This document shows, piece by piece, positions 7,363 through 22,346 of a stretch of 64,000 nt of DNA. The stretch comes from Acidimicrobiales bacterium (GTDB taxonomy: Bacteria > Actinomycetota > Acidimicrobiia > Acidimicrobiales > Aldehydirespiratoraceae). The stretch covers positions 5,214 to 69,213 of the forward strand of contig JAJCXZ010000106.1 in assembly GCA_029263175.1 (NCBI GenBank). Reading direction: 5' to 3'. Numbering within the stretch: position 1 is the stretch's first letter; each line of letters begins with the position of its first letter. The notes beneath the pieces are model-generated. The model made no database searches. It was not told the origin of the DNA and saw only the letters and a program-made list of their open reading frames with translations. The translations under genes and the position numbers were made by a program.

Positions 7363-7426
7363 GGCGCCTGGCATCACTCCTTCCGAGCCCGCCGGGCCGT
7401 CACAGCCGTGCTGTACTGACTGCACT

Positions 7427-9478
7427 ATGAGTGACGAGACGATCAAGAATCACGCGGCTTTCATCTGGTCGGTCGCCGATCTACTCCGGGGCGACTACAA
7501 GCAGTCGGAATACGGGCGGGTCATCCTGCCGTTCACGGTGCTACGACGTATCGACTGCGTGATCGATCCGGTCAAGGCCGACATGCTCGCCAAGTACGAG
7601 TCGACCAAGGCAGCCGGAATCGACAATCACGGCCCGGTCCTCGACCGGCTGACCGACACGCAGCATCTCTGGAACACGTCGAAGTACGACATCTCGAAGC
7701 TGCTGGATGACACCGATCACATCGCCGCAAACCTGCGGGCGTACATCGCTGCGTTCAGCCCACAGATTCGCGACATCCTCGAGCACTTCGATCTCGAAAC
7801 GCAGATCGCCCGGCTCGACAAGGCAAATCTCCTGTACCTCGTCGTCAGCAAGTTCGCCGACATCGACCTGCACCCCGACACGGTCTCCAACCTCGAGATG
7901 GGCTACCTGTACGAGGAGCTGATCCGCCGCTTCTCGGAACTGTCCAACGAGACGGCAGGTGAGCACTTCACACCTCGCGAGGTGATCCGGCTGATGGTGA
8001 ACCTGCTGTTCATCGATGACGACGAGCTGTTGGCCAAGCCGGGGATCGTGAAAACGATGTTCGACCCTGCGTGCGGCACCGGTGGCATGTTGAGCGTGGC
8101 GGAGGATCATCTGCGTCAGCTCAACCCGCAGGCGAAGCTCGAGGTGTTCGGCCAGGAGCTCAACCCCGAGACATACGCGACATGCCGGTCCGACATGATG
8201 CTGAAGGGCCAGAACGCCGAGAACATCGTGTTCGGCAACTCGTTCTCCGAGGACGGTCACGACGGCGCCTCGTTCGACTACCTGCTCGCCAACCCGCCGT
8301 TTGGGGTGGAGTGGAAGAAAGTGAAGGACGAGGTCACGACCGAGCACGAGACGAAGGGTTTCGCCGGTCGTTTCGGTGCGGGTCTGCCCCGTATCAACGA
8401 CGGCAGCTTCTTGTTCTTGCAGCACATGATCTCGAAGATGAAGCGCCCCGAGGACGGTGGCAGTCGTCTGGCGATTGTGTTCAACGGCAGCCCGCTGTTC
8501 ACCGGTGCGGCCGGTAGCGGCGAGTCGGAAATCCGGCGGTGGATCATCGAGAACGACTGGCTCGAAGCCGTCGTCGCCCTGCCCGATCAGCTCTTCTACA
8601 ACACCGGCATCTCGACGTACTTCTGGATCATCACCAACCGCAAGAGCCCGGAGCGCAAGGGCAAGGTGCAGCTCATCGACGCCCGCGACATGTTCGTGAA
8701 GATGCGCAAGAGCCTGGGCGAGAAGCGCAAAGAGATCGGTCGGTCCGACATCGACGAGATCGTCCGCACCTATGGCGACTTCGAGGAACGCATCGCCGAA
8801 CCTGCTGACGAGTCGAGACGGGTCGGCTGCAAGATCTTCCCCAACGAAGCGTTCGGCTTCCTTCGCATCACCATCGAACGACCCCTGCGTCTGCGCTGGG
8901 AGATCACCGCCGAAGGCATCGGAGCCCTCAAGGCCGACAAGAAGTTCGCCAATCTCGACGAGGCCGAGCAAGCTGCCTTGCTTGCCGACCTCGAGCCGGC
9001 GATCGGTGTTGCCTACCCGTCCGACGGCGACATCCGCTGCGAGGTCCAGGCGTCGATGAAGCGGGCCGGGGTGAAGGGCAAGCCGATCGAGAACACCATC
9101 GTAGATGTCTTCGCGTTCCGCGACCCAAAGGCCGACATCGTCACTGACAGGAAGGGTCACGCCGAGCCCGACAGCGACCTGCGCGACAACGAGAGCGTGC
9201 CGCTGCCGTCGGGGTCCGTCCGCTACGAACCCGACCCGACCGAGCGCCTGGCCACTGATACCTACGTCGACGCGGTCGAGGACTACGTCGAAGCCGAGGT
9301 CCACCCCTATGTCCCCGATGCCTGGGTCGCCCACGACAAGACCAAGATCGGCTACGAGATCCCCCTCACCCGCCACTTCTACGTCTACACGCCGCCTCGT
9401 CCCCTGGCTGAGATCGATGCCGAGATCCGCCAGCTGGAGTCGGAGATCCAGGGGCTGCTGGCCGAGGTGACCTCGTGA
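7427..9478 (+). CDS. hsdM: Type I restriction-modification DNA methyltransferase subunit M
   Basis: The conserved HsdM N-terminus starts at ATG 7427 (MSDETIKNHAAFIWSVADLLRGDYK). Motif I is FDPACGTGGML and motif IV is LANPPFG. The ORF-track start at 6971 adds 152 Arg/Ser-rich codons that overlap the previous gene. Confidence 0.93.
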   Translation: MSDETIKNHAAFIWSVADLLRGDYKQSEYGRVILPFTVLRRIDCVIDPVKADMLAKYESTKAAGIDNHGPVLDRLTDTQHLWNTSKYDISKLLDDTDHIAANLRAYIAAFSPQIRDILEHFDLETQIARLDKANLLYLVVSKFADIDLHPDTVSNLEMGYLYEELIRRFSELSNETAGEHFTPREVIRLMVNLLFIDDDELLAKPGIVKTMFDPACGTGGMLSVAEDHLRQLNPQAKLEVFGQELNPETYATCRSDMMLKGQNAENIVFGNSFSEDGHDGASFDYLLANPPFGVEWKKVKDEVTTEHETKGFAGRFGAGLPRINDGSFLFLQHMISKMKRPEDGGSRLAIVFNGSPLFTGAAGSGESEIRRWIIENDWLEAVVALPDQLFYNTGISTYFWIITNRKSPERKGKVQLIDARDMFVKMRKSLGEKRKEIGRSDIDEIVRTYGDFEERIAEPADESRRVGCKIFPNEAFGFLRITIERPLRLRWEITAEGIGALKADKKFANLDEAEQAALLADLEPAIGVAYPSDGDIRCEVQASMKRAGVKGKPIENTIVDVFAFRDPKADIVTDRKGHAEPDSDLRDNESVPLPSGSVRYEPDPTERLATDTYVDAVEDYVEAEVHPYVPDAWVAHDKTKIGYEIPLTRHFYVYTPPRPLAEIDAEIRQLESEIQGLLAEVTS

Positions 9479-10659
9479 ACATCGTCACTGTGCCACTACA
9501 ACGGGTGTTTCGGGTCGTCAACGGAGGCACACCGACAGCCGACGAGGCCAACTGGGCAGGCGATGTCCAATGGGCGACACCGGTCGACCTCGCGCGCAGT
9601 GACGGCGGGTTGATCGGGGCTACTGACAGGACCTTGACGCATGCCGGACTCGAGCAGGGCAGCCGTTCAGTGCCCTCGGGAAGTCTCGTCGTCTCGACGC
9701 GCGCTCCAATCGGCTACGTCGGTCAGACAACATGCGAAACTGCTTTCAACCAGGGTTGTCGGGGTTTGGTTCCGAGTTTCGAGTGCGATGTCCGCTTCTT
9801 TCGGTACCAGCTTTCGTCGATGACCGAACTCCTGAACTCGCTTGGGCAAGGTTCGACCTTCGTCGAGCTTTCATCGGGCGACCTTGAGTCTGCGCCGGTT
9901 GCAGTCCCTACAGTGGCGGAGCAGCGGGCGATTGCGGACTACCTAGACGCCGAGACCGCCCGCATCGACGCCCTCATCGCCAAGAAGCGACAACTCATCC
10001 ACCTCCTCGAAGAGCGCTGGCGGGCCCTTGTCGATCACGCAACGTCCACCGGTCACCGGGTCCGCGTTAGGCACTTAACGTCACTACGCACGAGCGGACC
10101 GAGGGGATGGGCAGAGCGGGTGGGTGACACCGGGCAGCCGTTCATAAGGTCAGGGAACCTGACCCGCGACTCGATCGAGATTGACCGCACAGAGTTGGCA
10201 AGAGTCGTACCCCCGAACGCCGCTGAGGCCAGACGCTCTGCGACCGCCTCGGGTGACTCTCTTATTGGGATTACTGGCGCCAACACCGGCTGGGTAGCAG
10301 CGGTCGACTCCGCGACGGACGCCGGGTTTGTCAGCCAGCACGTGGCGATTCTTCGCCCAGACCGAATCGAGCCTCGATGGCTTACCTACTCACTCTTTGC
10401 TCCGCGGTCTCAGGACCAGCTTCTCGGCGGTCAATACGGCGGCACGAAGACTCAGCTCGGGCTCCAAGACCTCGCGGAACTGGTCGTTCACGTGCCCACC
10501 AGCAGCGATCAACGGGTGATAGTCGAGCGCCTAGACGCGGAGCGGCTTCGACGCCGCCGGATGATCCAGGCACTCGAAATCCAGGTCGACCTACTGATTG
10601 AGCGTCGGCGCGCAGCTGTTACGGCAGCCGTGACCGGCACCCAAGAGGCCCCTAGATGA
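9475..10659 (+). CDS. hsdS: Type I R-M specificity subunit S (copy 1)
   Basis: 394 aa. The GTG start overlaps the hsdM stop (GTGA). Two variable halves are separated by the conserved central helix EQRAIADYLDAETARIDALIAKKRQLIHLLEE. The C-terminal conserved helix is LLIERRRAAVTAAVTG. Confidence 0.9.
   Translation: MNIVTVPLQRVFRVVNGGTPTADEANWAGDVQWATPVDLARSDGGLIGATDRTLTHAGLEQGSRSVPSGSLVVSTRAPIGYVGQTTCETAFNQGCRGLVPSFECDVRFFRYQLSSMTELLNSLGQGSTFVELSSGDLESAPVAVPTVAEQRAIADYLDAETARIDALIAKKRQLIHLLEERWRALVDHATSTGHRVRVRHLTSLRTSGPRGWAERVGDTGQPFIRSGNLTRDSIEIDRTELARVVPPNAAEARRSATASGDSLIGITGANTGWVAAVDSATDAGFVSQHVAILRPDRIEPRWLTYSLFAPRSQDQLLGGQYGGTKTQLGLQDLAELVVHVPTSSDQRVIVERLDAERLRRRRMIQALEIQVDLLIERRRAAVTAAVTGTQEAPR
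9925..10014 (+). repeat. 90-bp direct repeat, copy 1 (hsdS1 central conserved region)
   Basis: Hand alignment with 11106-11195 gives 88/90 identical (differences cctAgac/cctGgac and aagcGaca/aagcAaca). Confidence 0.85.
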
Positions 10660-11867
10660 CACGGCTCCGCTATCTGCTATCGCCAACGGACAGAAGGTGC
10701 GGCGACCATGGATCCCCCGAGGATCTGCTGTCAGTCTCCATTCACCGGGGGGTAGTACCTCGCCTGCACGAGACCCAGGACCTACCGCGTGCCGTTGACC
10801 TGGCCGGGTACAAGTTGGTCCGTCGCGGAGACATCGTGCTCAACCGGATGCGCGCATTTCAGGGTGCAGTGGGCAAGGCCCCCTGCGATGGGATTGTCAG
10901 TCCTGACTACATCGTCCTGATGCCGGGGTCCGAGGTCGAGGCTGCGTACCTGCATCACCTGTTCAGGTCACCATGGTTCGTCGCCGAGATGGTTGCGCGC
11001 CTCCGGGGCATCGGTTCGACCGACACGGGTTCCGTTCGGACGCCGCGAATCAACTGGGATGACCTTGGCGACATTGAGGTCTCAGTGCCGGATCGCCACG
11101 AACAACGGGCGATTGCGGACTACCTGGACGCCGAGACCGCCCGCATCGACGCCCTCATCGCCAAGAAGCAACAACTCATCCACCTCCTCGAAGAGAGGCT
11201 GTGGGCTGACGTTGTTCGCGAGGTTGCCGGCTGCAGGCGATTCGTGCCCCTGCGCAGAGCATTGGCGTCGATCGTCGACGGTCCGTTTGGTAGCGCGTTG
11301 ACGTCAGCTCACTACGTCACCGAGCCCGAGACTCGGGTTGTTCGTTTGGGCAACATCGGGTTTGCAGAGTTCCGCGGTCACGACGAGGCATACGTATCGC
11401 ACTCATACGGGACCGAGCTTCGCAGGCACCGGGTCACCAGGGGTGACCTATTGATCGCAGGACTTGGCGACAGCCGCAACCACGTCGGGCGCGCAGTTGT
11501 TGCCCCCGACCTGGGAAAGGCGATTGTGAAGGCTGACTGCTACTGCGCTGCGGTCGACCAGCGCGTAGCCATCCCGGAGTTCCTTGCAGTTGTTCTCTCG
11601 TCACCCCTTGGCCGTGATGCAGTTGGAAAGGCAGGTCGCGGCACTACCCGGTCGCGAATCAACCTTGAGATAGCGAAAGAGGTCGTTCTGCCGCTGCCGG
11701 AACTCTTTGTCCAACGGTCGATCGCCGCTCGGTTCGAGGAGCGCCGTGTTGCGTCGAATCGGTCGAAAGAAGCAGTGAGCACGCAGGTAGCTCTGCTCGC
11801 GGAGAAACGTCAGGCCCTTATCACCGCCGCTGTCACTGGCGAGTTCAGTGTTCCAGGAGCTGCATGA
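10656..11867 (+). CDS. hsdS: Type I R-M specificity subunit S (copy 2)
   Basis: 403 aa. The ATG overlaps the previous stop (ATGA). Central helix EQRAIADYLDAETARIDALIAKKQQLIHLLEE is nearly identical to copy 1. The C-terminal helix is LLAEKRQALITAAVTGEF. The flanking target-recognition regions differ from copy 1. Confidence 0.9.
   Translation: MTRLRYLLSPTDRRCGDHGSPEDLLSVSIHRGVVPRLHETQDLPRAVDLAGYKLVRRGDIVLNRMRAFQGAVGKAPCDGIVSPDYIVLMPGSEVEAAYLHHLFRSPWFVAEMVARLRGIGSTDTGSVRTPRINWDDLGDIEVSVPDRHEQRAIADYLDAETARIDALIAKKQQLIHLLEERLWADVVREVAGCRRFVPLRRALASIVDGPFGSALTSAHYVTEPETRVVRLGNIGFAEFRGHDEAYVSHSYGTELRRHRVTRGDLLIAGLGDSRNHVGRAVVAPDLGKAIVKADCYCAAVDQRVAIPEFLAVVLSSPLGRDAVGKAGRGTTRSRINLEIAKEVVLPLPELFVQRSIAARFEERRVASNRSKEAVSTQVALLAEKRQALITAAVTGEFSVPGAA
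11106..11195 (+). repeat. 90-bp direct repeat, copy 2 (hsdS2 central conserved region)
   Basis: See copy 1. The flanking DNA is not alignable by eye. Confidence 0.85.
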
Positions 11868-14800
11868 TGGCTGGACCGAAGGAGTTCGACTTCGAGACGC
11901 AGATCTGCGACGCGCTGGCCGCCGGCAGCGGCTACGTCGCTGCAAAGGTTGGCACCGCGCAGGAAGGCCCTCCTGACTTCGACCCTGCCCGTGGCCTCGA
12001 CACAGCCGAGCTGTTCACGTTCATCGGTGCGACTCAGGCCGATGAATGGGCGGAGCTGATCAGCCGGTACGGCGGTGACCCGAACGAGGCGCAGCGGCAG
12101 TTCGCCAATCGCGTGGCGAAGGTGATCGACGATCGGGGCACGATCGAAGTCCTTCGCCAGGGCGTCGATGACCTCGGCGTCAACATCCGGCTCGCCTACT
12201 TCAAGCCGTCGACCTCGCTCAACGATGAGACGCTGGAGCGCTACGAAGCCAACCGGCTTACCGTCACCCGTCAGCTCCCGTACGAGACCGCGGGCAACAA
12301 GACGCTCGACCTGTGCCTGCTCGCCAACGGCATTCCCGTCGTCACCGCCGAGCTCAAGACCCACCTCACCGGCCAGACTGCTGAGCACGCCAAGACCCAG
12401 TACGAAACCGACCGCGACTCGGCCAACACCACCCTCGGCAAACGAGCCGTCGCTCACTTCGCGGTCGACACCGAGGTCGCCTGGATGACCACTCGGCTCA
12501 CCGGCAAGAAGACCCGCTGGTTCCACTACAACCTCGGCCGCGACAACGGCGCCGGCAACCCCGACAACCCCACCGGCCACCGCACCTCGTACCTGTGGGA
12601 ACAGCTCTGGGAACGCAATGCCCTGCTCGACATCCTCAGCCGCTTTGTCCACGTGGAACCCACCCCCAAGGGCAAGAAGAGCGAAGGCGCCGTCATCTTC
12701 CCCCGCTTCCACCAGTGGGACGCCGTGCTCCAGATCGCCGACCACGCCCGCACCAACGGCGCCGGCCACAACTATCTCGTCCAACACTCCGCGGGCTCGG
12801 GTAAGTCGAACACCATCGCCTGGCTCGCTCACAGGCTCTCCACTCTCCACGACACCGCCGACACCAAGGTCTTCGACAAGGTCATCGTGATCACCGACCG
12901 TCAAGTGCTCGATCGGCAGATGCAAGAAACCGTTGGCCAGTTCGAGAAGGTCGCCGGCGTTGTCCAGAAGATCGACGAGAACTCCGCCCAGCTCGCCGAA
13001 GCCCTCGAAGGCGAGCAGGCTCGGATCATCATCACCACGATCCAGAAGTTTCCGTTCGCACTCGAGAAGATCTCGTCGTTGCCCGACCGGCGCTACGCCG
13101 TGATCGCCGACGAAGCCCACTCGTCACAGTCAGGGGAGACGGCCAAGGACGTACGGATCGTGCTGCGAGCCCAGTCGGACGAAGAGACGCTCGCGGCCGA
13201 GGAGCTCGAGGATCTCGGGTCGGCCGACGAGGTGGCGGACCCAGTACAGGATGAGCTGGAGAAGCAGGTCAATGCTCGCGGGCCACAGAAGAACATCAGT
13301 TTCTTTGCCTTCACAGCGACGCCAAAGGCACGCACGCTCGAGATGTTCGGCACCAAGGTCGCCGGCGACGATGACAAGCCCACCTACGTACCCTTCCACC
13401 TGTACTCGATGCGGCAGGCCATTCAGGAGGGGTACATCCACGACGTCCTCGCCAACTACACAACCTACGAGACGTACTGGAACATCGAGAAGGCCGTCGA
13501 AGACGACCCCGAGTACGACCCTGGTCGGGCCAAGGCGGCGATCGCCAAGTTCGTCAGCCTCCATGAACACAACCTGGCGCAGAAGGCCGACATCATCGTC
13601 AACCACTTCCGGGACAAGGTCTCGAACTTGGTGGGGGGCGAGGCCAAGGCGATGGTGGTCACGGCCTCGCGGCTACACGCGCTGCGGTACGGATTGGCGC
13701 TGCGGCACTACTGCGCAGAGAACGGCATCAACGACGTTGGCGTGCTCGTCGCCTTCTCCGGCACGCTCACCGACAACGGCATCGACTACACCGAGACGTC
13801 GATCAACGGCTTCCCTGAATCACAGACGCCGTCCAAGTTCGACACCGACGAGTTCCAGATCCTTGTCGTCGCTGAGAAGTACCAGACCGGCTTCGACCAG
13901 CCGAAGCTCCACACGATGTACGTCGACAAGCCGCTCTCGGGCCTCGCCGCCGTCCAGACACTCTCGCGCCTGAACCGCTCGCACCCGAAGAAGGACTCGA
14001 CGTTCGTGTTCGACTTCCGGAACAGCGCCGAGGACATCCGCAACGCATTCGCCCCGTGGTACGTCCGCACCGAGGCACCGCCCACCGACCCCAATCTGAT
14101 GTACGACGCCTATCACCGGATGATGGAGTACGACGTCCTCCGGATCGAGGAGACCGAGGCGTTCGTCTCCGTGCTGCTTGAAGATCCGACCGCGTCGGAT
14201 CGGATCTACGGACTACTCGAGGGTGCGAAGGCCCGATTCTGGGAGGCCCTCGATGAGGAGGAGCAAGGTCGATTCCGTGATGCGCTGAAGGACTTCGTGA
14301 GTGCCTACAGCTACCTCTCGCAGATCGTGCCGTTCGGCGACGCCAAGCTCGAACGCGACTACGTGTTCTGCCGGGCGCTCGCTCGGTTCATCCGTGCGCC
14401 TGGTGAGGAGTTGCCGCCGATCGGCGACGAAGTTGAGCTGACGCACCTCGCCACCCGACTCACTGGCGAGGGATCCATTTCGCTTCCCGAAGACGAGGGC
14501 GAGCTCTCCGGGCGGGGGGAGGTGCTTGGGCGGCCTGGCGTCCCCGACGCCGAGCTTCTGTCTGAGATCATCAAGCGTCTCAACGAACGGTACGGGACCA
14601 GCTTCGACCCAGCCGATCGAGTGTTCTTCGATGCGCTCGTCGAGAAGATGGCGGATCGTCCCGAGGTGCAACAGGCCGCGATGGCCAATAGTCCGGAGAA
14701 CTTCCGGATCGCCATGGCCGATGGGTTCCAGGATGCGGTGATTGACCAGATGGGCGTGGCCACCGACATCACCAAGAACTTCCTGGACAACCAAGACTTT

Positions 14801-15397
14801 GCAGGCGACGTCCTTGGTGCGTACATGCCGCTGCTGCAGACGAAAGCAAAGGTTGCCCACCAGCAGCATTGTCCGCTGGGCGAACTGCTCGGCGGCGAGA
14901 CGTCATGGCTCGAATACAAAGCGTCGCTGCGGACGAATGCCGATGGCAAGAAGTTCCGGTTGATGGAGGCGATGACACTCAAGACCGTGGCGGCGTTCCT
15001 CAATTCCTACGACGGTGGGACGCTGCTGATCGGTGTGACTGACGATGGTGGCGTTGTCGGTCTTGAGAACGACTTCGCCACTCTCCGCAAGGATGGCAAG
15101 GACGACGCTGACCTGTTCCTTCTGCACGTGAACAACCTGATGCGCTCGTCGATGGGGCCCGCGGCGATCACCAACGTCTACACGGAGATCGTTGAGTGGG
15201 GCGGCGAGGCTGTGTGTCGGATGCACGTCAAGCCGAGCGGCTTCCCCGTCGAGGCAACGGTGAAGGTGCAGGAGAACGGCCCGAACGTAACGAAGACCGT
15301 CACCTACGTGCGGATCAACAACGCCACGCACGAGTTCAAGGATGAAGACGAGAAGCAGAAGTTCATCGCCCAGCGATGGCCTGGAGGTGGGGCATGA
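11864..15397 (+). CDS. hsdR: Type I restriction enzyme R subunit fused to a C-terminal Schlafen/AlbA_2-like domain
   Basis: 1177 aa, with an ATGA overlap with hsdS2. Nuclease motif DLCLLANGIPVVTAELK. Motor motifs QHSAGSGKSNTIAW and the DEAH box VIADEAHSSQ. The C-terminal ~175 aa (approx 14870-15394) read ETSWLEYKASL..VAAFLNSYDGGTLLIGVTDDGGVVGL, which fits the AlbA_2 (AAA_4) pattern. Confidence 0.9.
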   Translation: MMAGPKEFDFETQICDALAAGSGYVAAKVGTAQEGPPDFDPARGLDTAELFTFIGATQADEWAELISRYGGDPNEAQRQFANRVAKVIDDRGTIEVLRQGVDDLGVNIRLAYFKPSTSLNDETLERYEANRLTVTRQLPYETAGNKTLDLCLLANGIPVVTAELKTHLTGQTAEHAKTQYETDRDSANTTLGKRAVAHFAVDTEVAWMTTRLTGKKTRWFHYNLGRDNGAGNPDNPTGHRTSYLWEQLWERNALLDILSRFVHVEPTPKGKKSEGAVIFPRFHQWDAVLQIADHARTNGAGHNYLVQHSAGSGKSNTIAWLAHRLSTLHDTADTKVFDKVIVITDRQVLDRQMQETVGQFEKVAGVVQKIDENSAQLAEALEGEQARIIITTIQKFPFALEKISSLPDRRYAVIADEAHSSQSGETAKDVRIVLRAQSDEETLAAEELEDLGSADEVADPVQDELEKQVNARGPQKNISFFAFTATPKARTLEMFGTKVAGDDDKPTYVPFHLYSMRQAIQEGYIHDVLANYTTYETYWNIEKAVEDDPEYDPGRAKAAIAKFVSLHEHNLAQKADIIVNHFRDKVSNLVGGEAKAMVVTASRLHALRYGLALRHYCAENGINDVGVLVAFSGTLTDNGIDYTETSINGFPESQTPSKFDTDEFQILVVAEKYQTGFDQPKLHTMYVDKPLSGLAAVQTLSRLNRSHPKKDSTFVFDFRNSAEDIRNAFAPWYVRTEAPPTDPNLMYDAYHRMMEYDVLRIEETEAFVSVLLEDPTASDRIYGLLEGAKARFWEALDEEEQGRFRDALKDFVSAYSYLSQIVPFGDAKLERDYVFCRALARFIRAPGEELPPIGDEVELTHLATRLTGEGSISLPEDEGELSGRGEVLGRPGVPDAELLSEIIKRLNERYGTSFDPADRVFFDALVEKMADRPEVQQAAMANSPENFRIAMADGFQDAVIDQMGVATDITKNFLDNQDFAGDVLGAYMPLLQTKAKVAHQQHCPLGELLGGETSWLEYKASLRTNADGKKFRLMEAMTLKTVAAFLNSYDGGTLLIGVTDDGGVVGLENDFATLRKDGKDDADLFLLHVNNLMRSSMGPAAITNVYTEIVEWGGEAVCRMHVKPSGFPVEATVKVQENGPNVTKTVTYVRINNATHEFKDEDEKQKFIAQRWPGGGA

Positions 15398-16049: not shown

Positions 16050-17738
16050 ATGGAAGCAAGAAACCGACCAGTCGCAGACTGGTTCAACGCAATCAGGACG
16101 GGGCAGATCCTGCTTCCCCGCTTCCAACGCCATGAGGCCTGGGGCCACGCCCAGATCACGGCCTTGCTCGAAAGCGTGCTTCGGGGGCTTCCAACCGGAG
16201 CAGCGCTGATCCTCGAGATTGGCGATGAGCAACCGTTCCTTGCACGGGCCCTGGTCGGCGCCCCCGAGCCGACTGAGCGGGTGACCGAGCACTTGCTCGA
16301 CGGGCAGCAGCGGTTGACTGCCCTCTGGCGGGCATGCCATGACAACTACCCAGATCGGGTCTACCTCATCGGCGAAGAGTTGGACGAAGAGGCCGGCACG
16401 AGTCGCCCGATCGTGCGCGCCGAGCCGACGCGCTGGAAGAACGGAACCAGGTACCCCCTCTGGCTCGACCAGCCGGCCGAGTGTTGGGCGCGGAACCTGA
16501 TCCCACTGCGGTTGTGCTCACCTGATGCCCCGCAGGACGAAGCCAATGCCTGGGTGGATGAAGCAGCCAACGGTGGGCCAACCCGGGAGATAGACCAGGC
16601 GATTCTCGGCTACCGGTCGACCGTCGCCGCATTCAACATCCCGTTCCTGAGTCTTCCGACCGGCACTCCTCGAGAAACTGCCCTTGACGTCTTCATCAAC
16701 ATGAACACAAGTTCGGTTCGGTTGACCTCATACGACATCGTCGTAGCTCAGTACGAGGCAGCTACCGGGGAGTCGCTCCATGACCAGGTAGAGGAGCTTC
16801 AGGCCGCCGTCCCACGCCTCAACGACTACCGCAGCGCCGAGAACCTCCTCCTCGACATGGCGGCACTTCGAGAGGACAGGCCGCCTAACCAGGCGTCGTA
16901 CCACAGGCTCGACCTCGCCCATCTCAACGACTCGTTCGACGAACTCGTCAGCGGCGCGGCGTTCGCAATCGAGATTCTCGAAGGCGAAGGAGTGTTTGAC
17001 GGCGACCGTCTGCCCACCGTCGCCGTACTCCCAATACTTGGCGCGTTGGTAGGCCACGTCCCACCCGGCGGCGATGAGCGCGGCAACGCAATCGGCTTGC
17101 TTCGCTCGTATCTGTGGAGAGCCTTCAGCACAAACCGCTACGAGGCAGCGGCAGCCAACCGAGCGCTCCAGGACTACCGAGGGCTTCGAGGGGAGCTGAC
17201 AGCGAGCGCCAGGACCGCACCGATCTTCGACGAGCAATTCCACGCGCTTCCAGGCCCGGACGAGCTGAAACAGGCGCAATGGCCAAAGAACCGCGAGACG
17301 CTCGCGCGAGCGATTCTCTGCGCCTCCCTTCGACGGGGTGCCTTCGATCTTGCCGACGGGGCCAAGGCGACGGCTGCAAACATGGGAAGTCGTGAGTATC
17401 ACCACCTGTTCCCTGACGCGTACCTTCAACAGAACACAGAGGCTTCTCGCCAGCAGATATACCGCGCACTCAACTGTTCGCTGATCACCTGGCGAACAAA
17501 CCGTCGGATCAGTGCGAAGGCCCCACTCGTCTATCTGCGCGAGCGCGTAGAGGCCTCGTCGCTTGGGGAAGACGAGATCCGACGACGGCTGGAGTCTCAC
17601 CTGATCCCATGGGACGAGTTCGCCAAGGCGTCAGATGCGGATGTGCACGGGTCCTACGAGCGTTTTCTCGATGCTCGTGCGGAAGTCGTGGCCGGCTATC
17701 TCCAGGAGCTGTGTGCCGGCCGGGAGCCGAACGGCTAG
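16050..17738 (+). CDS. GmrSD-family DUF262/DUF1524 protein (putative modification-dependent type IV restriction enzyme)
   Basis: 562 aa. DUF262 motifs: LLPRFQRHEAW and LLDGQQRLTALW. C-terminal His-Me finger: REYHHLFPDAYL..ALNCSLITWRTNRRISAK. Confidence 0.82.
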   Translation: MEARNRPVADWFNAIRTGQILLPRFQRHEAWGHAQITALLESVLRGLPTGAALILEIGDEQPFLARALVGAPEPTERVTEHLLDGQQRLTALWRACHDNYPDRVYLIGEELDEEAGTSRPIVRAEPTRWKNGTRYPLWLDQPAECWARNLIPLRLCSPDAPQDEANAWVDEAANGGPTREIDQAILGYRSTVAAFNIPFLSLPTGTPRETALDVFINMNTSSVRLTSYDIVVAQYEAATGESLHDQVEELQAAVPRLNDYRSAENLLLDMAALREDRPPNQASYHRLDLAHLNDSFDELVSGAAFAIEILEGEGVFDGDRLPTVAVLPILGALVGHVPPGGDERGNAIGLLRSYLWRAFSTNRYEAAAANRALQDYRGLRGELTASARTAPIFDEQFHALPGPDELKQAQWPKNRETLARAILCASLRRGAFDLADGAKATAANMGSREYHHLFPDAYLQQNTEASRQQIYRALNCSLITWRTNRRISAKAPLVYLRERVEASSLGEDEIRRRLESHLIPWDEFAKASDADVHGSYERFLDARAEVVAGYLQELCAGREPNG

Positions 17739-17740
17739 CT

Positions 17741-18601
17741 GTGGCCGAGGATCAGCTCGACCTTTTCGCCTCGAGCGATCCGCCACCGGACTACCCCCTG
17801 ACGCTCGGACACGCCACACTCACGGCTGTCCCAACACGCTCGATCCTCACTCGGGCATCGGGCTTCATGTCGGACTACGACTACACACTGAATCCGTATT
17901 CCGGGTGTAGCTACGGCTGCACCTACTGCTATGCCGCATTCTTCGCCCGATCCGAGGAGCGGCGCGACACCTGGGGCCGATGGGTCGAGGTAAAGGAGAA
18001 CGCCCTCGACGTTCTTCGACGGATGCGGAGCGATCTACGCGGCAAGACCGTCTACATGAGCAGCGTTACCGATCCATACCAGCCGATCGAGCGGCGTCTC
18101 GGGCTGGTGCGCTCGCTGCTGGAGGAGCTTGCGCCACGAGGAGTCCGCCTAGTGGTCCAGACGAGAAGCCCGATCGTTGCGCGCGACATCGACGTGTTGG
18201 GTCGATTCGGTGCAGCACGAGTGAACATGACCGTCACCACCGACAGCGACAGGGTCCAGAGGGCGTTCGAACCGCATTGCCCGACCAACCAGAAGCGGCT
18301 TGCCGCGATCACCGAGGTTGCCGCCGCCGGGCTTCCCACTGCGATCACCATGACGCCGCTGCTTCCCCTGGAAGATCCAGAGTCATTCGCCACCGAGCTG
18401 CATTCCACCGGCGTCCGCGACTTCGTAGTCCAGCCCTTCCACGCAGACCGGGGCAAGTTCATCGCTGGTACCCGCGACGCGGCGCTTCAGCTAGAGCGGG
18501 AGATGGACTGGACGGCGGAGCGCTATCGAGCAGCGGTGGCGGTCCTTCGAAGCCAGCTCCCGGGCCTGAAAGAAGGACGGGAGGGCTTCGCTCCCGAATG
18601 A
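17741..18601 (+). CDS. Radical SAM protein, SplB/COG1533-like
   Basis: GTG 17741 lies 2 nt after the previous stop. CxxxCxxC cluster: NPYSGCSYGCTYCYAAFF. TIM-barrel-like remainder (VYMSSVTDPYQP, LVVQTRSP). The ORF-track start at 17609 lies inside the upstream gene. Confidence 0.78.
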   Translation: MAEDQLDLFASSDPPPDYPLTLGHATLTAVPTRSILTRASGFMSDYDYTLNPYSGCSYGCTYCYAAFFARSEERRDTWGRWVEVKENALDVLRRMRSDLRGKTVYMSSVTDPYQPIERRLGLVRSLLEELAPRGVRLVVQTRSPIVARDIDVLGRFGAARVNMTVTTDSDRVQRAFEPHCPTNQKRLAAITEVAAAGLPTAITMTPLLPLEDPESFATELHSTGVRDFVVQPFHADRGKFIAGTRDAALQLEREMDWTAERYRAAVAVLRSQLPGLKEGREGFAPE

Positions 18602-21357
18602 CCTACCCGAACCGATCCGCGATCCTCGAACGAGTAGGCGAATGGGCTGAGCCCGTCGACCGCGCCATCGCTTCCGGTGTGCACCAAAGAGTCGCTGACC
18701 TCGGTGAGTGGTCCTCGTATGAGTGGCAAGCAAGCCTCCAGGAGCTGCTCAAGCTGAGTCAGGGCGAAGACGCCAACTACGACAGGCCCACGATCGGTCC
18801 CTCGTATGCGCTGTGGTACCACGCACGTCGAGTCAACCCGCTGGTATCGCAGCTGGAACGGATCTTTCGCCTCGTCCGCGACCGGGGAATCGCCGAGTTC
18901 GACATCGTCGATCTTGGTGCTGGAACGGGAGCCGTGGCATGGGCAGCGGCGCTCGTTGCTGCCGCCGTTTCCGAGCAGGATGAGCCGCCCCACGCAACGG
19001 TCCACGAGGTCGAGAGCAGTCCGTTCATGTCGGAGACCGCCGACTGCCTATGGGCTGCCCTCCATGAGGAGATCGATTCCTTCGGGACGGTCACGCGGGA
19101 AGTGGTCTCTCACTCGTGGCCAAATGCGACCCTCGATCGAGGCAACCCGACGTGGCTCCTGGCGAGCTTTCTGCTCGATCACACCGACAAGCAACGAGAG
19201 GAGGAGATGGCCAAAGCCCTCCATCGCGTAGTGGACAACTGCCAGGCAGAAGGTGTGGTCTTCACCGTCGTCAGTAACAAGAAGAAGGTCGCAGTCTCAG
19301 CGATCGATTCGCTGGAAGCGACCCACGCGTGGGAAGGCCTCACCCGCCGGGCGACACCCCTTTGGACGGGCAAGATGCCCCACGCGACTGAGGTCCGCCG
19401 GGAGCTGTACCGATCGTTCGGTGTCAGCAGCAACCTGGTGAAGAAGGCGGTGGAATTCAGCGGCGACAAGCCACACGTTCGAGAAGCTCGTCGACCGATC
19501 GGCCAGCAAGGCACGCTGGTCGATGAGCGGCCGTGGGTTCACCTCACCGATGAACAACAACTCGCGGTCGACGCGCCCCTCGATCGTCATTTGTTCGTCG
19601 CCGGTGCGGCCGGAAGCGGGAAGAGCATCGTGCTCATCGAGCGCCTCATGCGCCTCATCAAACGCCCGAGGCCCGGGGCTTCTCGTTCGATCCTTGTCAC
19701 GAGTTTCAACAAGGGCATGATCACTCAGCTCGACCGCTGGTTGACAGATCGTCTCGCAAATGACGGCATAGCCAACTACACGCGGACCGGTGGCGATGCC
19801 GACATCACCTACAAGGACGTCGGCACCGGACGGGACACGGTTCGGTTCCTCAACTGGGACAAGGCCCCGACCAAACTGTTCGGCTACAAGGAATCGGCGA
19901 AGAGCGACTCTGCCTGGCTCAAGGAGGCCGCCACCGTCCTGGAGGAGCTGCGGCGCTCATCTGAGGTCTCGATTCTCGATCGGATGACGCCAGCGTTCCT
20001 CCTCGCCGAGTATCGACGTGTCATCTACGGACTTGGCGCGATCCGTTGGGAGGACTACCGCACCGTCGTTCGGGAGGGGCGTGGCCTGCCGCTTCAGGAA
20101 CCGCATCGCCGAGCGGTTTGGCTCGCATACGAGAAGCTCGGACCGACGAACTTCACCGGCCGTCGGGTCGAGATGCTCCGTGCGGGTCGCAGCGACAAGC
20201 TCGACGCCGATTTCACCGACGTCTTTATCGACGAGGTGCAGGACTTCGCGCCGGCCGATGTCGAGAGTGCCCTCGCATTCTGGGATCGATCCGGGACTGT
20301 CTTCTATACCGGCGACGAGGCACAGGCGCTGTTCGTCGGGATGTCGTATCGTCGCCCATCGCACCCGACTGGGCGGTGGGGAAGTGCTTCAGTCGTACGC
20401 CTGAACGGCTCCCACCGTTTGCCCGTGCCGATCGCTCGAGCGGTCGGAAACCTCGCCGAGGCAGCGATCGCCGAGCGGGAAGCCAACAACCTGTCGGCTG
20501 AAGACGTCTCCGTTCCGTCATCACGAAAGGCGGCAGTAATCGGGACACGGCCGATCGTGGTTCTCGGCAGCACCAATGAGCTCGCCGTCCAGATCGAGGA
20601 CATCCGCGCGGCATACAGCGGATTCCTCGACGCGGAAGCTGGCTCGCGCTACATCACGATTGCCGAACCCGATCCCTTGTTGGCGAAGCTGCTCGATGAC
20701 GCCGTCAGCACAACGGTGAAGAAGATCAAGGGGCTCGAACGCGGGATGGTCGTCTGGTCCGGTGCCGGCCGACTTGATCACGAAACCGAGCGGCTCGAAA
20801 CGGCCTACACCGTCATGACCCGGACGTCATGTCTGCTCGTGCTTGCCATCGACTCGGACCGCCTGCTTGCCCCGAACCTCGACGTGTTGTCCAAGCTCGA
20901 CGGCACTGACCTTCTCTTCTGGACAGAGAAGGCGGAGGCGTGGTGGTGGGACCATTTCCGGCCATCGACTCCTCCAAGACCAGCTGATGACGGGGGCCCC
21001 GCAAAGCCGGACAAGCCAAAGCCAGTCGGGGCGATTGGGACACCAAGGAAGCAACCAGCTCCCGCTCACCTAGTCGATACGAGCTGGGGGGAGGGCGCTC
21101 CTTGCGAACTCCACGAACTGGGCTGGTGCACACTCTGCAAGCCTCGACAGCTTCCCAGGACCGTCGTGATGACCAAGGGAAGCGGTGCTGCCTTCCATGC
21201 GCGAGCCGACTGTCCGGCTCTCCAGTCGGGTCAGCGACTCGTCGCTAGCCGAGGCGGCGATCCAGCGGAAGTCGTGAAGGTTGCGCTCGCATCCGCGATC
21301 AACAACGGGAACTTCCCGTGCATGGTCTGTCTGCCGCACGCAGAAGGGCGGCTCTAG
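18598..21357 (+). CDS. Fusion protein: class I SAM-methyltransferase-like N-domain + SF1 UvrD-like helicase + C-terminal Cys/His zinc-binding tail
   Basis: ATG 18598 overlaps the radical SAM stop (ATGA). MTase motif I is FDIVDLGAGTGAVAW, followed by VHEVESS. Helicase motifs: FVAGAAGSGKSIVLIE, VFIDEVQDFAP, YTGDEAQALF, LNGSHRLP, KIKGLERGMVVW, YTVMTRTSCLLVLA. Tail: CELHELGWCTLC...AFHARADCPAL...FPCMVCLPH. The ORF-track start at 17980 is an Arg-rich extension over the previous gene. Confidence 0.8.
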   Translation: MTYPNRSAILERVGEWAEPVDRAIASGVHQRVADLGEWSSYEWQASLQELLKLSQGEDANYDRPTIGPSYALWYHARRVNPLVSQLERIFRLVRDRGIAEFDIVDLGAGTGAVAWAAALVAAAVSEQDEPPHATVHEVESSPFMSETADCLWAALHEEIDSFGTVTREVVSHSWPNATLDRGNPTWLLASFLLDHTDKQREEEMAKALHRVVDNCQAEGVVFTVVSNKKKVAVSAIDSLEATHAWEGLTRRATPLWTGKMPHATEVRRELYRSFGVSSNLVKKAVEFSGDKPHVREARRPIGQQGTLVDERPWVHLTDEQQLAVDAPLDRHLFVAGAAGSGKSIVLIERLMRLIKRPRPGASRSILVTSFNKGMITQLDRWLTDRLANDGIANYTRTGGDADITYKDVGTGRDTVRFLNWDKAPTKLFGYKESAKSDSAWLKEAATVLEELRRSSEVSILDRMTPAFLLAEYRRVIYGLGAIRWEDYRTVVREGRGLPLQEPHRRAVWLAYEKLGPTNFTGRRVEMLRAGRSDKLDADFTDVFIDEVQDFAPADVESALAFWDRSGTVFYTGDEAQALFVGMSYRRPSHPTGRWGSASVVRLNGSHRLPVPIARAVGNLAEAAIAEREANNLSAEDVSVPSSRKAAVIGTRPIVVLGSTNELAVQIEDIRAAYSGFLDAEAGSRYITIAEPDPLLAKLLDDAVSTTVKKIKGLERGMVVWSGAGRLDHETERLETAYTVMTRTSCLLVLAIDSDRLLAPNLDVLSKLDGTDLLFWTEKAEAWWWDHFRPSTPPRPADDGGPAKPDKPKPVGAIGTPRKQPAPAHLVDTSWGEGAPCELHELGWCTLCKPRQLPRTVVMTKGSGAAFHARADCPALQSGQRLVASRGGDPAEVVKVALASAINNGNFPCMVCLPHAEGRL

Positions 21358-21476
21358 CGGGCTCGACTCGCAGCCACGCTCCCCCAAGTATCGCGCCAGG
21401 TTCTGCGACGGTTGATCACGCCCGGTGAGCACCCAGGATGGTCTGTAAGGTCGGGCGCAGATCGAGAGGCGACCTC

Positions 21477-22346
21477 ATGAACGACCAACCCGAACTCGGT
21501 GCTCTCAGCCCCGTGAATCTGCGGACGATCTGGGCCAACGAGGCGACGGACTTCACACCCTGGTTGGCAGGGAACCTCGAACTCCTGGCGGAAGCTCTCG
21601 GGATCGGAGGTCTCACGCTTCTGGAACAGGAGCATCGCGTCGGATCATTCTGCCTCGATCTGCTCGCGCAACTCGACGACGGTCGGATCGTCGCGATCGA
21701 GAACCAACTCGAGCGCTCCGATCACACCCATCTTGGCCAGTGCTTGACGTACGCGGCCGGTGTCGGCGCCTATGCGATCGTGTGGGTTCTGCCGGCTCTG
21801 GCGAGCGAGCATCGCGCCGCGCTGGACTGGCTCAACGAACACACTGACGGCGAGGTTCACTTCTTCGGAGTCGAGATAGCCGTCGTGCAGATCGGCGCTT
21901 CGCTGCCTGCGCCGGTCTTCAACATCGTCTCGCGGCCAAACGACTGGCAGAAGTCCGTGCGCACGCGGAACTCCACGGCATTCCGAGACTGGTCACGTGG
22001 CTACAAGGCGCTCGGCTCACTCCGCGATGCCGAATGGACGAGCATTCACGCCCTCGCAGAGCTACTCGGTACCTCGCCCGGTTGGGTGGGCCGCCACTTC
22101 TACAACCGCCGCCACGACCCAGAGACCATCCGGATGTTCATGGATGACGGGTCGATCTGGAAATGGATGCGGCACGACGCGGACTCGCCACCGAGCGCGG
22201 GGCAACTTCGCGACGAACTCGCCAACCTTGGCATCGTGCTCGATGACAACGACCGCGCCGATCCTTCTGACTTCATGGACTCCAGCGCGCTGGCGGCCCG
22301 GCTCGCCTCCGAGGAGTTGCCTCCCGCCCAGACAGGGGTTGAGTAG
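21477..22346 (+). CDS. PD-(D/E)XK nuclease-fold protein (DUF4268-type)
   Basis: Starts MNDQPEL, preceded by GAGAGG. Core: HRVGSFCLDLLAQLDDGRIVAIENQLERSDHTHLGQCLTYAAG (D...E-x-Q). Confidence 0.6.
   Translation: MNDQPELGALSPVNLRTIWANEATDFTPWLAGNLELLAEALGIGGLTLLEQEHRVGSFCLDLLAQLDDGRIVAIENQLERSDHTHLGQCLTYAAGVGAYAIVWVLPALASEHRAALDWLNEHTDGEVHFFGVEIAVVQIGASLPAPVFNIVSRPNDWQKSVRTRNSTAFRDWSRGYKALGSLRDAEWTSIHALAELLGTSPGWVGRHFYNRRHDPETIRMFMDDGSIWKWMRHDADSPPSAGQLRDELANLGIVLDDNDRADPSDFMDSSALAARLASEELPPAQTGVE

Follow-up and report, generated by a model that had tools for sequence, protein, structure and literature searches.

Two overlapping genes, encoding an enzyme of the radical S-adenosylmethionine (SAM) type and a methyltransferase–helicase fusion protein, lie at positions 17741 to 21357 of a 64,000-nucleotide stretch of contig JAJCXZ010000106.1 from an Acidimicrobiales bacterium (the whole stretch is called the window below). 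Across genomes, these genes form a rare, obligate, co-inherited, co-evolving, translationally coupled and horizontally mobile cassette. The pair is undescribed in PADLOC-DB 2.0.0, NCBIfam 20.0, Pfam and the literature that was searched in full text, in agreement with a preliminary description of the window that had not recognised it as a named defence system. We consider it quite possible, and propose tentatively, that the pair is an undescribed, self-contained and horizontally mobile two-gene conflict (defence-type) module that acts on DNA. The features on which the argument draws are as follows.

17741..18601, + strand: radical SAM gene, 286 amino acids (aa), of the spore photoproduct lyase (SPL)-like, COG1533-type subfamily (open reading frame (ORF) and translation, Pfam, NCBIfam, AlphaFold2, Foldseek)
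17906..17932, + strand: predicted [4Fe-4S]/SAM motif CSYGCTYCY, C56-x3-C60-x-Y62-C63-Y64 (invariance in homologues and match to the SPL pattern)
18598..18601, + strand: ATGA stop/start overlap of the two genes (sequence)
18598..21357, + strand: methyltransferase–helicase fusion gene, 919 aa (translation; homologues 787–937 aa)
18598..19533, + strand: predicted class I SAM methyltransferase-fold domain, aa 1–312 (AlphaFold2, Foldseek, weak Pfam matches in homologues)
18778..18831, + strand: family-specific motif YDRP..Y..WYH.RR, aa 61–78, before the Rossmann core (conservation)
18907..18933, + strand: methyltransferase motif I VDLGAGTGA, aa 104–112, putative SAM-binding glycine loop (conservation)
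19003..19029, + strand: methyltransferase motif II region HEVESSPFM, aa 136–144, with the acidic residue ending strand β2 (conservation, model)
19534..20967, + strand: predicted UvrD-type superfamily 1 (SF1) helicase core, aa 313–790 (Pfam, conservation)
19603..19626, + strand: Walker A GAAGSGKS, aa 336–343 (conservation)
20227..20244, + strand: Walker B/motif II IDEVQD (conservation)
20968..21357, + strand: clade-specific C-terminal tail, a Pro/Lys-rich linker followed by a Cys/His cluster (21103–21330; 6 Cys, 4 His)

The two genes are found together almost without exception. A word-indexed search of 5.8 billion sequences returned 52 relatives of the 919-aa protein, an undercount because the protein diverges fast. 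A one-genome-per-species scan gave 69 loci and, with three metagenomic contexts added, yielded 59 loci whose relative contains the N-terminal domain. The full-length methyltransferase–helicase relative adjoins, in 58 of them, a member of the same radical SAM subfamily, 45–75% identical to that of the window. The radical SAM gene lies immediately upstream on the same strand in 57 loci and is divergent in one cyanobacterial locus; the lone exception among the 59 is a contig that begins inside the helicase gene. No radical SAM gene was present at any locus matching the generic helicase core alone. Looking from the other side, all three close radical SAM homologues on long contigs, chosen blind, are followed by a gene for a 794–805-aa UvrD/methyltransferase-type protein with a 4-nucleotide (nt) overlap. 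Co-occurrence in other genomes, whose absence the preliminary description had named as speaking against its proposal, holds across phyla.

The overlap itself, ATGA at 18598–18601, had been described as a coupling of the two genes, and the sequence supports reading it as translational coupling. A 4-nt stop/start overlap recurs in 21 of 56 related loci; other intact same-strand pairs have a gap of at most 27 nt or an overlap that is probably due to the choice of the longest ORF, and larger gaps occur at two loci (L046 and L051) where the genes are cut. When flanking ORFs from 56 loci were clustered all against all, the only widely conserved families to emerge were the pair itself, without any third gene. 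In a mirror-tree comparison, the pairwise distances of the two proteins correlate with r = 0.82, a value reached in none of 2,000 permutations. Near-universal co-occurrence, the lack of a third gene and this correlation together indicate that the pair is inherited as a unit. Over the same 47 loci, the two proteins differ in rate, with a median pairwise identity of 61% for the radical SAM protein and 38% for the methyltransferase–helicase.

Could the adjacency be meaningless, with unrelated genes brought together by chance in a crowded island? Positions 279–22346 of the window are tightly packed and co-directional, and the upstream GmrSD-like gene likewise stops just 2 nt short of the radical SAM start codon; tight spacing is thus weak proof in itself. 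Conservation of the pair in 58 of 59 loci from at least five phyla while the other neighbours change, with no other conserved neighbour and with the correlated distances, refutes chance adjacency for practical purposes.

The carriers are mostly Bacteroidota, with Actinomycetota, Planctomycetota, Balneolaceae, a cyanobacterium and Gammaproteobacteria, and include the cultured strains Runella slithyformis DSM 19594 (on plasmid pRUNSL02), Ferruginibacter albus, Flavobacterium flavipigmentatum F-70 and Algoriphagus marincola DSM 16067. The pair occupies about 3.4–3.6 kb, and its distribution is patchy and non-syntenic, even among several Flavobacterium loci. RefSeq labels the Runella genes only as 'radical SAM protein' and 'UvrD-helicase domain-containing protein'. 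A few loci depart from the usual arrangement. At the divergent locus (L047 5398–8895, a Chroococcales cyanobacterium), the genes do not overlap and encode the most divergent radical SAM protein (45% identity). At the locus of homologue P0031, a gene for a 452-aa PIF1/SLFN-g3-type helicase (5778–7136) overlaps the start of the radical SAM gene (7124–7999) by 13 nt and could be an added third component in that variant. The helicase and/or radical SAM genes are split or truncated at six loci (L044, L046, L051, L053, L057 and L058); some of these are long-read or metagenome-assembled genomes, in which decay and assembly error are not distinguishable.

The radical SAM ORF runs from a GTG start at 17741 to a TGA stop at 18601 and encodes 286 aa. 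An ATG at 17609 in the same frame gives the longest ORF; GTG 17741 is the likely start because the homologues, 281–286 aa long, begin at the equivalent position. The preliminary description had called the gene SplB/COG1533-like on the strength of CSYGCTYC (aa 56–63, nt 17906–17929), and this assignment stands. Pfam Radical_SAM (PF04055) matches at 5.4e-17 (62.9 bits, above the cut-off of 29.5), residues C56, C60, C63, Y62 and Y64 are invariant in homologue sets of 47 and 53, and the AlphaFold2 model (predicted local distance difference test (pLDDT) 90.2) is a partial TIM barrel; by motif, score and model, the protein belongs to the radical SAM superfamily. The block S108-V-T-D-P-Y-Q-P115, Q140-T-R142, C180 and H234 are also invariant. 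The nearest NCBIfam families, PA0069 (NF033668, 3.8e-34), Rv2578c (NF038135, 4.1e-28) and radical SAM mobile pair protein B (TIGR04470, 3e-28), are all uncharacterised SplB-like radical SAM proteins, and the 118, 98 and 99 bits obtained against them fall below their cut-offs of 360, 430 and 410. TIGR04470 is also linked to mobile elements. Unlike these three families, the clade of the pair is defined by its methyltransferase–helicase partner. It is tightly conserved: members are 49–97% identical to one another, mean column identity is 58% across phyla, and the 120 best relatives are all at least 61% identical to the window protein.

To our knowledge, only two radical SAM enzymes act on DNA: SPL and gp53 of phage M6. 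Searches of the Protein Data Bank (PDB) by sequence, with each protein of the pair and with family profiles, found no meaningful relative, and fold comparison alone was informative. In a Foldseek search of the PDB with the radical SAM model, ranks 1–6 are all SPL (E 5.6e-10 to 7.9e-9, template-modelling (TM) score 0.54–0.58), roughly 1,000-fold or more better than the next match, lipoyl synthase (9e-6). SPL (SplB; PDB 4FHC and related structures), which acts directly on DNA, shares with the protein of the pair the partial TIM barrel and the motif CxxxCxYCY. The cluster motif of SPL is C90MGHC94HY96C97Y98, in which Tyr98 has a proposed role in radical transfer (PMC8989533, PMC3467042). CSYGCTYCY reproduces the SPL pattern CMGHCHYCY, with Y62 and Y64 as the equivalents of Tyr96 and Tyr98.

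The protein nevertheless appears, on sequence scores and the model, to be SPL-like and not an SPL. Its scores against the SPL families are far below cut-off (TIGR04070, 24 versus 400 bits; PF20903, 16.5 versus 27), and a profile of the radical SAM family retrieves no SPL from the PDB by sequence. Identity to SPL is about 17%, and the protein of the pair is about 55 aa shorter with a different N-terminal region. The positions of the hydrogen-donor cysteine of SPL, Cys140 (Cys77 in clostridia), placed by linear offset only, fall at M106/S107 and F42/M43 and hold no cysteine, the sole extra invariant cysteine being C180; secondary-structure assignment with DSSP finds no SPL-type, DNA-flipping β-hairpin after strand 227–232 of the model. 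SPL has no methyltransferase–helicase partner, whereas the radical SAM protein of the pair always has one. These family scores and the apparent lack of hallmarks led us to reject assignment as SPL proper.

An accessory repair function would nonetheless suit an SPL-like enzyme: it would directly reverse a lesion, for instance a spore-photoproduct-type or other thymine C5-linked or methylene-bridged product of ultraviolet light in dry DNA, that the UvrD-like helicase locates or uncovers. In its favour, the closest solved structure is that of SPL, whose Tyr-Cys-Tyr signature is kept; UvrD-family helicases are classical repair motors; the hosts are largely soil, freshwater and surface bacteria; some genomic contexts are housekeeping; and the radical SAM enzyme is highly conserved. 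Other COG1533 SplB-like proteins sit in SOS/repair networks (PMC3765255, PMC8565304), and other Bacteroidota splB genes are SOS-regulated (PMC8565304). We counted LexA boxes upstream of 54 loci, using the Bacteroidota patterns CTAA-N5-TTAG or GGA-N5-TCC/TTC and the actinobacterial pattern GAAC-N4-GTTC. The counts of 1, 3, 6 and 0 compare with about 0.3, 3.8, 7.5 and 0.2 expected from the flanks, a background level that does not identify an SOS-regulated SplB-type repair gene. Grouping of the radical SAM protein with housekeeping repair enzymes, which the preliminary description had named as a finding that would speak against its proposal, is not what we see: the protein forms its own clade, below the cut-offs of PA0069, Rv2578c, mobile pair protein B and SPL. 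The apparent lack of SPL hallmarks also counts against repair, as do the sporadic, non-syntenic distribution tied to mobile elements and defence islands, a fused methyltransferase with no obvious role in lesion reversal and a helicase partner that evolves fast. On balance, we judge a repair function rather improbable.

M6 gp53 is an SPL-like radical SAM enzyme that isomerises glycine on thymine C5 in polymeric DNA (PMC8989533). This thymidine hypermodification isomerase (YuA gp12 type; phrog_9252) alters a substituent of a base within polymeric DNA, and weak homology links it to the radical SAM protein of the pair (phrog_9252, 1.2e-8; YuA gp12, 28.7% identity over 128 aa). It differs in being phage-encoded, about 450–480 aa long and part of a cluster with kinase, transferase and pyridoxal-phosphate enzyme genes, whereas the pair is cellular or plasmid-borne and lacks those partners. 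Phages also hold phrog_13321, an uncharacterised COG1533-type radical SAM family of about 300 aa that matches the window protein at 3.2e-38, and more distant radical SAM relatives occur in archaeal bicaudaviruses and Pseudomonas phage YuA. The best viral structural match of the radical SAM model is a 469-aa protein (BFVD A0A7S5RCB4; E 3.5e-11, TM 0.64, root-mean-square deviation 3.7), slightly better than SPL. With SPL at the top six ranks, an invariant CxxxCxYCY motif and the M6 gp53 precedent, DNA-directed radical chemistry is plausible for the pair.

We then consider the partner protein, whose N-terminal domain was proposed in the preliminary description to be class I methyltransferase-like, with the motif VDLGAGTG. 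This proposal is supported by a model of aa 1–312 built by AlphaFold2 with 28 homologues (pLDDT 92.4, predicted TM score 0.92), in which an N-terminal helical region is followed by a Rossmann fold. Foldseek against the PDB places METTL17/Rsm22 first (8css_7, 2.6e-7), then histamine N-methyltransferase, PsiM, CmoA, NTMT1 and Dot1L; nearly all of the top 50 matches are class I methyltransferases, the exceptions being GRAS domains. The Pfam families Methyltransf_31, Methyltransf_12 and Methyltransf_25 weakly match 15, 8 and 5 of 50 homologues, and no Pfam methyltransferase family matches the window protein itself. In motif I (aa 104–112), D105, G107, G109, T110, G111 and A112 are invariant in the 50 homologues. 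In the motif II region, S141 and M144 never vary, and an acidic residue (E or D) occupies position 139, following a strand modelled at E132–138. The Rossmann core, motif I and the acidic residue after β2 together assign the confidently modelled domain to the class I SAM-dependent methyltransferase fold. None of the three findings that the preliminary description had named as refuting its proposal, the lack of such a fold among them, was thus obtained. These elements are shared by METTL17/Rsm22 and other class I methyltransferases, although METTL17 is only 14% identical (TM-score about 0.46) and the N-terminal domain has its own YDRP..WYH.RR signature, in which Y61, D62, R63, Y70, W73 and R78 are invariant in 28 N-domain sequences and Y74 and H75 are kept in at least 90%. 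Mean identity between homologues is 32% in this domain and 35% in the helicase core. Retention of motifs I and II and of the YDRP..WYH.RR block amid about 32% identity argues for a functional SAM or substrate pocket.

The pocket is unlikely to serve classical DNA base methylation, because the catalytic motifs (D/N/S)PP(Y/F/W/H) and PC(Q/K) of DNA methyltransferases were found in 0 of 50 homologues (regular-expression search of the N-terminal 320 aa for these two motifs). We therefore rejected assignment as an N6A, N4C or C5 DNA methyltransferase. The domain is also restricted in its architecture. A profile of the N-terminal domain alone, searched against 1.84 billion sequences, retrieved 411 cluster representatives at E ≤ 1e-10, of which 177 reach E ≤ 1e-30; nearly all of the top-scoring 150 of these 177 are about 790–930 aa long with the domain at the N terminus. 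The methyltransferase domain is thus essentially exclusive to the fusion with this helicase.

The remainder of the fusion is predicted to be a UvrD/Rep-type SF1 helicase with the complete motif set that had been described for it: Q motif, Walker A, Ia, DExQ, III, IV, V and VI. Pfam UvrD-helicase (PF00580) matches above cut-off (1.1e-9, 38.8 versus 23 bits), with UvrD_C_2 (21.4 versus 27.4 bits) and AAA_19 both below it. The motifs are GAAGSGKS (336–343), DEVQD (545–549), GDEAQA (572–577), GSHRLP (604–609), KGLERG (711–716) and YTVMTRT (737–743). Invariant in the 50 homologues are Q320, GxAGxGK (336–342), N371 (in TFN), DExQD (545–549), D573, Q576, R607, G712 and E714; the motif VI residues T738, T741 and R742 are kept in at least 90%. 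Motif invariance in the two domains indicates that both putative catalytic centres of the fusion are under selection. The most variable stretches, the inter-domain linker (aa 241–330) and an insertion between motifs Ia and II (aa 391–450), are candidates for substrate recognition. The C-terminal Cys/His cluster is present in the window protein as described, in the pieces CELHELGWCTLC (836–847), FHARADCPAL (866–875) and PCMVC (907–911), and no Pfam family matches it. It occurs in only 5 of 50 homologues, the subclade of the window, each with six cysteines, and is therefore a clade-specific add-on and not part of the core. In homologue P0014, a short helix-rich tail (…LAIGEIAALHQRTAGAIRSKMKKLGL; alignment A1 columns ~1100–1210) that resembles a helix-turn-helix replaces it.

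The best structural matches of the N-terminal domain, an rRNA-associated methyltransferase (METTL17) and small-molecule and protein methyltransferases rather than DNA methyltransferases, invite a different view of the substrate, in which the pair would modify RNA or make a small antiviral or signalling nucleotide. The helicase-like ATPase would then be an RNA remodeller or sensor, with a small molecule as the substrate of the methyltransferase. A precedent exists in viperin-type radical SAM enzymes, whose products are antiviral nucleotides. The radical SAM protein is SPL-like, however, and viperin, a poor fold match that we rejected as a relative, ranks only 37th and 47th in the Foldseek search; the ATPase is UvrD/GajB-like, of a DNA helicase lineage, and no nucleotide kinase or transferase partners are conserved. 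A non-DNA target therefore seems to us improbable, and we give it little credence.

Relatives of the methyltransferase–helicase were sought in 50,697 phage records (INPHARED) and 2.9 million IMG/VR contigs, and none were found; in these collections, phages carry distant COG1533 radical SAM proteins only. This result leads us to reject a phage origin and points to a function on the side of the host or plasmid.

Within the window, the pair is placed towards the downstream end of a tightly packed, co-directional 22-kb run of defence genes (279–22346, + strand), with the following neighbours.

279–2435, + strand: UvrD-like helicase
2470–7362, + strand: 1630-aa SF1 helicase (AAA_11/AAA_12) with an MTES_1575 nuclease domain
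to 9478 (start uncertain), + strand: hsdM of a type I restriction–modification (R-M) system
9475–10659 and 10656–11867, + strand: two tandem full-length hsdS genes with a 4-nt overlap
11864–15397, + strand: HsdR with a C-terminal Schlafen/AlbA_2 domain (aa 1012–1157, 1.4e-14)
between hsdR and the GmrSD_N gene, + strand: T5orf172 protein (PDC-S57)
16050–17738, + strand: GmrSD_N protein, 562 aa (N-terminal DUF262-type domain, 1.4e-20)
21438–22346, + strand: PDC-S11 protein, 302 aa (PADLOC candidate PDC-S11, 5.5e-73; phrog_27742)

The GmrSD-like gene noted in the preliminary description is confirmed by its GmrSD_N match. No GmrSD_C/HNH half was detected in the protein, whose best PADLOC match is the candidate PDC-M55C; PDC-M55A-like genes lie upstream of the pair in two other loci. 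The 302-aa protein has no meaningful Pfam domain (only CysS_C, E 0.014, below cut-off), and its D..(15)..IENQLE (D...ExQ) pattern could make it a candidate PD-(D/E)XK variant, in line with the preliminary description. The tandem hsdS genes suggest alternative specificities for one type I system. The HsdR–Schlafen/AlbA_2 fusion is unusual in joining an R-M motor to a domain now linked to anti-phage Schlafen nucleases. At the Pseudomonas aeruginosa defence hotspot cDHS1, the conserved right flank has a large DUF4011 SF1 helicase gene beside a radical SAM gene (PMC10250203); the helicase at 2470–7362 of the window is similar in make-up to that flank helicase. Rfam, tRNA and promoter/terminator scans of the window added nothing.

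A qualitative census of the 12 contexts with Pfam or record annotation, the window included, divides them as follows.

Defence islands (6 of 12): window, L001, L002, L003, L074 and L075
Conjugative elements (2 of 12): Runella plasmid pRUNSL02 (L077) and L079
Ordinary metabolic or envelope contexts (4 of 12), no defence-related neighbours: L073, L078, L080 and the P0031 locus

Neighbours in the defence islands include type ISP and IIG R-M, PLD-SNF2, NERD-kinase, Mrr, DUF6361, a YprA-like helicase, Schlafen, PIN toxin–antitoxin pairs, SMC-like ATPases, a dCMP deaminase–AAA_18 fusion, SRA-HNH and GmrSD. On pRUNSL02 the pair lies between HipBA and IS21, and at L079 (4661–10559) between a relaxase and a type IV coupling protein; in the latter it adjoins a three-gene block that includes a 'HisKin-conflict' domain protein. 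Taking the two nearest ORFs on each side of 55 loci, many defence families appear, each in one to three loci and amid housekeeping genes: JukA, type II/III methyltransferases, NsnB, AriA, OLD/GajA, AbiLi, type IV restriction endonucleases, MkoA, BrxL, PglZ, SoFic, DRT and Cas1. Immediate neighbours across loci include type I, II, III and ISP R-M, GmrSD, Mrr, McrBC, SRA-HNH, BREX PglZ/BrxL, Mokosh MkoA, PARIS AriA, OLD/GajA, DRT, dCMP deaminase–AAA_18, Schlafen, toxin–antitoxin pairs and integrases. The association with defence is real but partial, covering about half of the annotated contexts.

The same contexts can be read in terms of DNA modification. The helicase would track the carrier's own DNA, whether chromosome or conjugative plasmid, while its two SAM-using sites, radical SAM and methyltransferase, jointly introduce an unusual base modification, for instance by C-alkylation then methylation, that would protect from restriction or mark the DNA epigenetically. 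Two SAM-using sites are tied to a translocase, and the pair occurs on conjugative elements and beside the modification-dependent nucleases GmrSD, Mrr, McrBC and SRA-HNH. Tandems of a radical SAM enzyme and a class I methyltransferase are established in tRNA base modification (TYW1/TYW3, Elp3/Trm9). M6 gp53, for its part, shows that SPL-like enzymes can build DNA hypermodifications post-replicatively (PMC8989533). Against this, no cognate restriction partner is conserved, no genes that would supply precursors (kinases, transferases) accompany the pair, the methyltransferase–helicase is entirely missing from phages, where DNA hypermodification is mainly used, and the methyltransferase domain is without DNA methyltransferase motifs. 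A modification module is therefore an unlikely explanation, albeit one worth keeping in view. The broader proposal of the preliminary description, a DNA-modification or defence module, is partly supported, by the defence-island setting (6 of 12 contexts) and not by the catalytic motifs of the methyltransferase; processive base modification or damage would be a putative activity.

Comparison with known systems places the pair outside them. No one system in PADLOC-DB v2.0.0 matches both proteins over their full length: the radical SAM protein matches only PDC-M41B (0.0025), over the cluster motif, and the helicase gives partial matches to GajB (best 1.5e-7, fewer than 100 residues), mad8 and DRT-helicase. 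Gabija (GajA/GajB), Nhi, Hachiman and AbpAB resemble the pair as helicase-plus-effector systems in compact operons within defence islands, and the helicase of the pair is UvrD/GajB-like. Its partner is, however, a radical SAM enzyme and not a nuclease, and its helicase bears an N-terminal methyltransferase fold. We rejected Gabija itself, since the GajB matches are partial only and the conserved partner is the radical SAM protein, with no GajA (OLD/Toprim) conserved.

Type ISP and type I R-M systems likewise combine a SAM-dependent methyltransferase, an ATP-driven DNA translocase and a DNA-damaging activity. Their motor is of superfamily 2 (SF2), whereas that of the pair is SF1; the methyltransferase of the pair lacks the N6A, N4C and C5 motifs, and no target recognition domain, specificity subunit or nuclease was recognised. 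As these systems need an SF2 motor, a nuclease, a target recognition domain and DNA methyltransferase motifs, none of which was found in the pair, we rejected this assignment also. Radical SAM enzymes take part in anti-phage immunity as prokaryotic viperins, Ophion and HXS (bioRxiv 10.1101/2025.09.30.679545; PMC13128918). Viperins perform nucleotide dehydration, Ophion combines a radical SAM protein with a PHP protein and a phosphoribosyltransferase, and HXS carries out peptide maturation; these are unrelated radical SAM lineages, and none is known to have a helicase–methyltransferase partner or an SPL-like enzyme. Because membership fails for SPL, the NCBIfam families, Gabija, R-M and PADLOC systems, and the literature searched describes no such pair, we rate it as lying outside known kinds of system. 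It is a candidate from comparative genomics and, if the defence reading is right, could also be counted as a helicase-plus-effector system with an unprecedented effector.

Our preferred reading, a conflict module acting on DNA, takes DNA as the substrate because the only characterised radical SAM relatives act on DNA and the motor is of a DNA-helicase lineage. It takes conflict as the function because the pair has a sporadic, non-syntenic distribution, often lies in defence islands and on conjugative elements, is missing from phages, shows no SOS link and is asymmetric in rate; the median identities of 61% and 38% fit a conserved effector with a diversifying sensor or recognition subunit. Under this reading, the radical SAM protein and the methyltransferase–helicase would form a complex, with the fast-evolving fusion as the recognition subunit and the slow-evolving radical SAM protein as the effector. 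The helicase would load on and unwind target DNA, probably invading or replicating foreign DNA, and present exposed bases to the radical SAM subunit. There, the [4Fe-4S]/SAM site would make a 5′-deoxyadenosyl radical that takes hydrogen from DNA. As in SPL and M6 gp53, the position attacked would most likely be a pyrimidine C5/C6 substituent or one beside it, and the resulting lesion, adduct or break would block replication of the invader. The methyltransferase-fold domain would use a second SAM for one of three tasks: methylation of the intermediate or product that the radical generates, marking or licensing of the substrate, or service as a SAM-dependent switch.

A more specific version of this proposal is that the pair is the first immune system with a radical SAM effector acting directly on nucleic acid, an SPL-like enzyme carried along invading DNA by the methyltransferase–helicase and disabling it by radical hydrogen abstraction through a lesion, cross-link or strand break. 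We hold this version to be possible but doubtful. It would amount to restriction by radical chemistry instead of hydrolysis, and its specific targets, for attack or for rewriting, may be the hypermodified (thymine-C5-substituted) bases by which phages evade restriction.

Several observations weigh against a conflict module. The defence role is argued from guilt by association, and in 4 of the 12 annotated contexts the surroundings are simply housekeeping genes. The pair shows no nuclease, no toxin and no obvious component for self-protection or immunity, and R-M-like logic of self and non-self is unsupported because the methyltransferase domain lacks DNA methyltransferase motifs in 50 of 50 homologues. 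Among characterised enzymes, those most closely related to the radical SAM protein serve to repair or build DNA, not to destroy it, and the very high conservation of the radical SAM protein could equally reflect a fixed, housekeeping-like chemistry. The hosts are mostly aerobes, an odd setting for an oxygen-labile effector.

The pair would define a third, cellular lineage beside SPL and M6 gp53. This lineage is strictly tied to an ATP-driven DNA motor that carries a second SAM-using domain, and it travels horizontally, by way of defence islands and conjugative elements, in at least five phyla. Were it an immune system, bacterial immunity would gain an effector chemistry and a logic of SAM-dependent control that are both new; a role in modification or repair would instead imply that some DNA base modification or lesion has yet to be discovered. 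Biotechnology might also find a use for a processive, ATP-driven radical DNA-editing enzyme.

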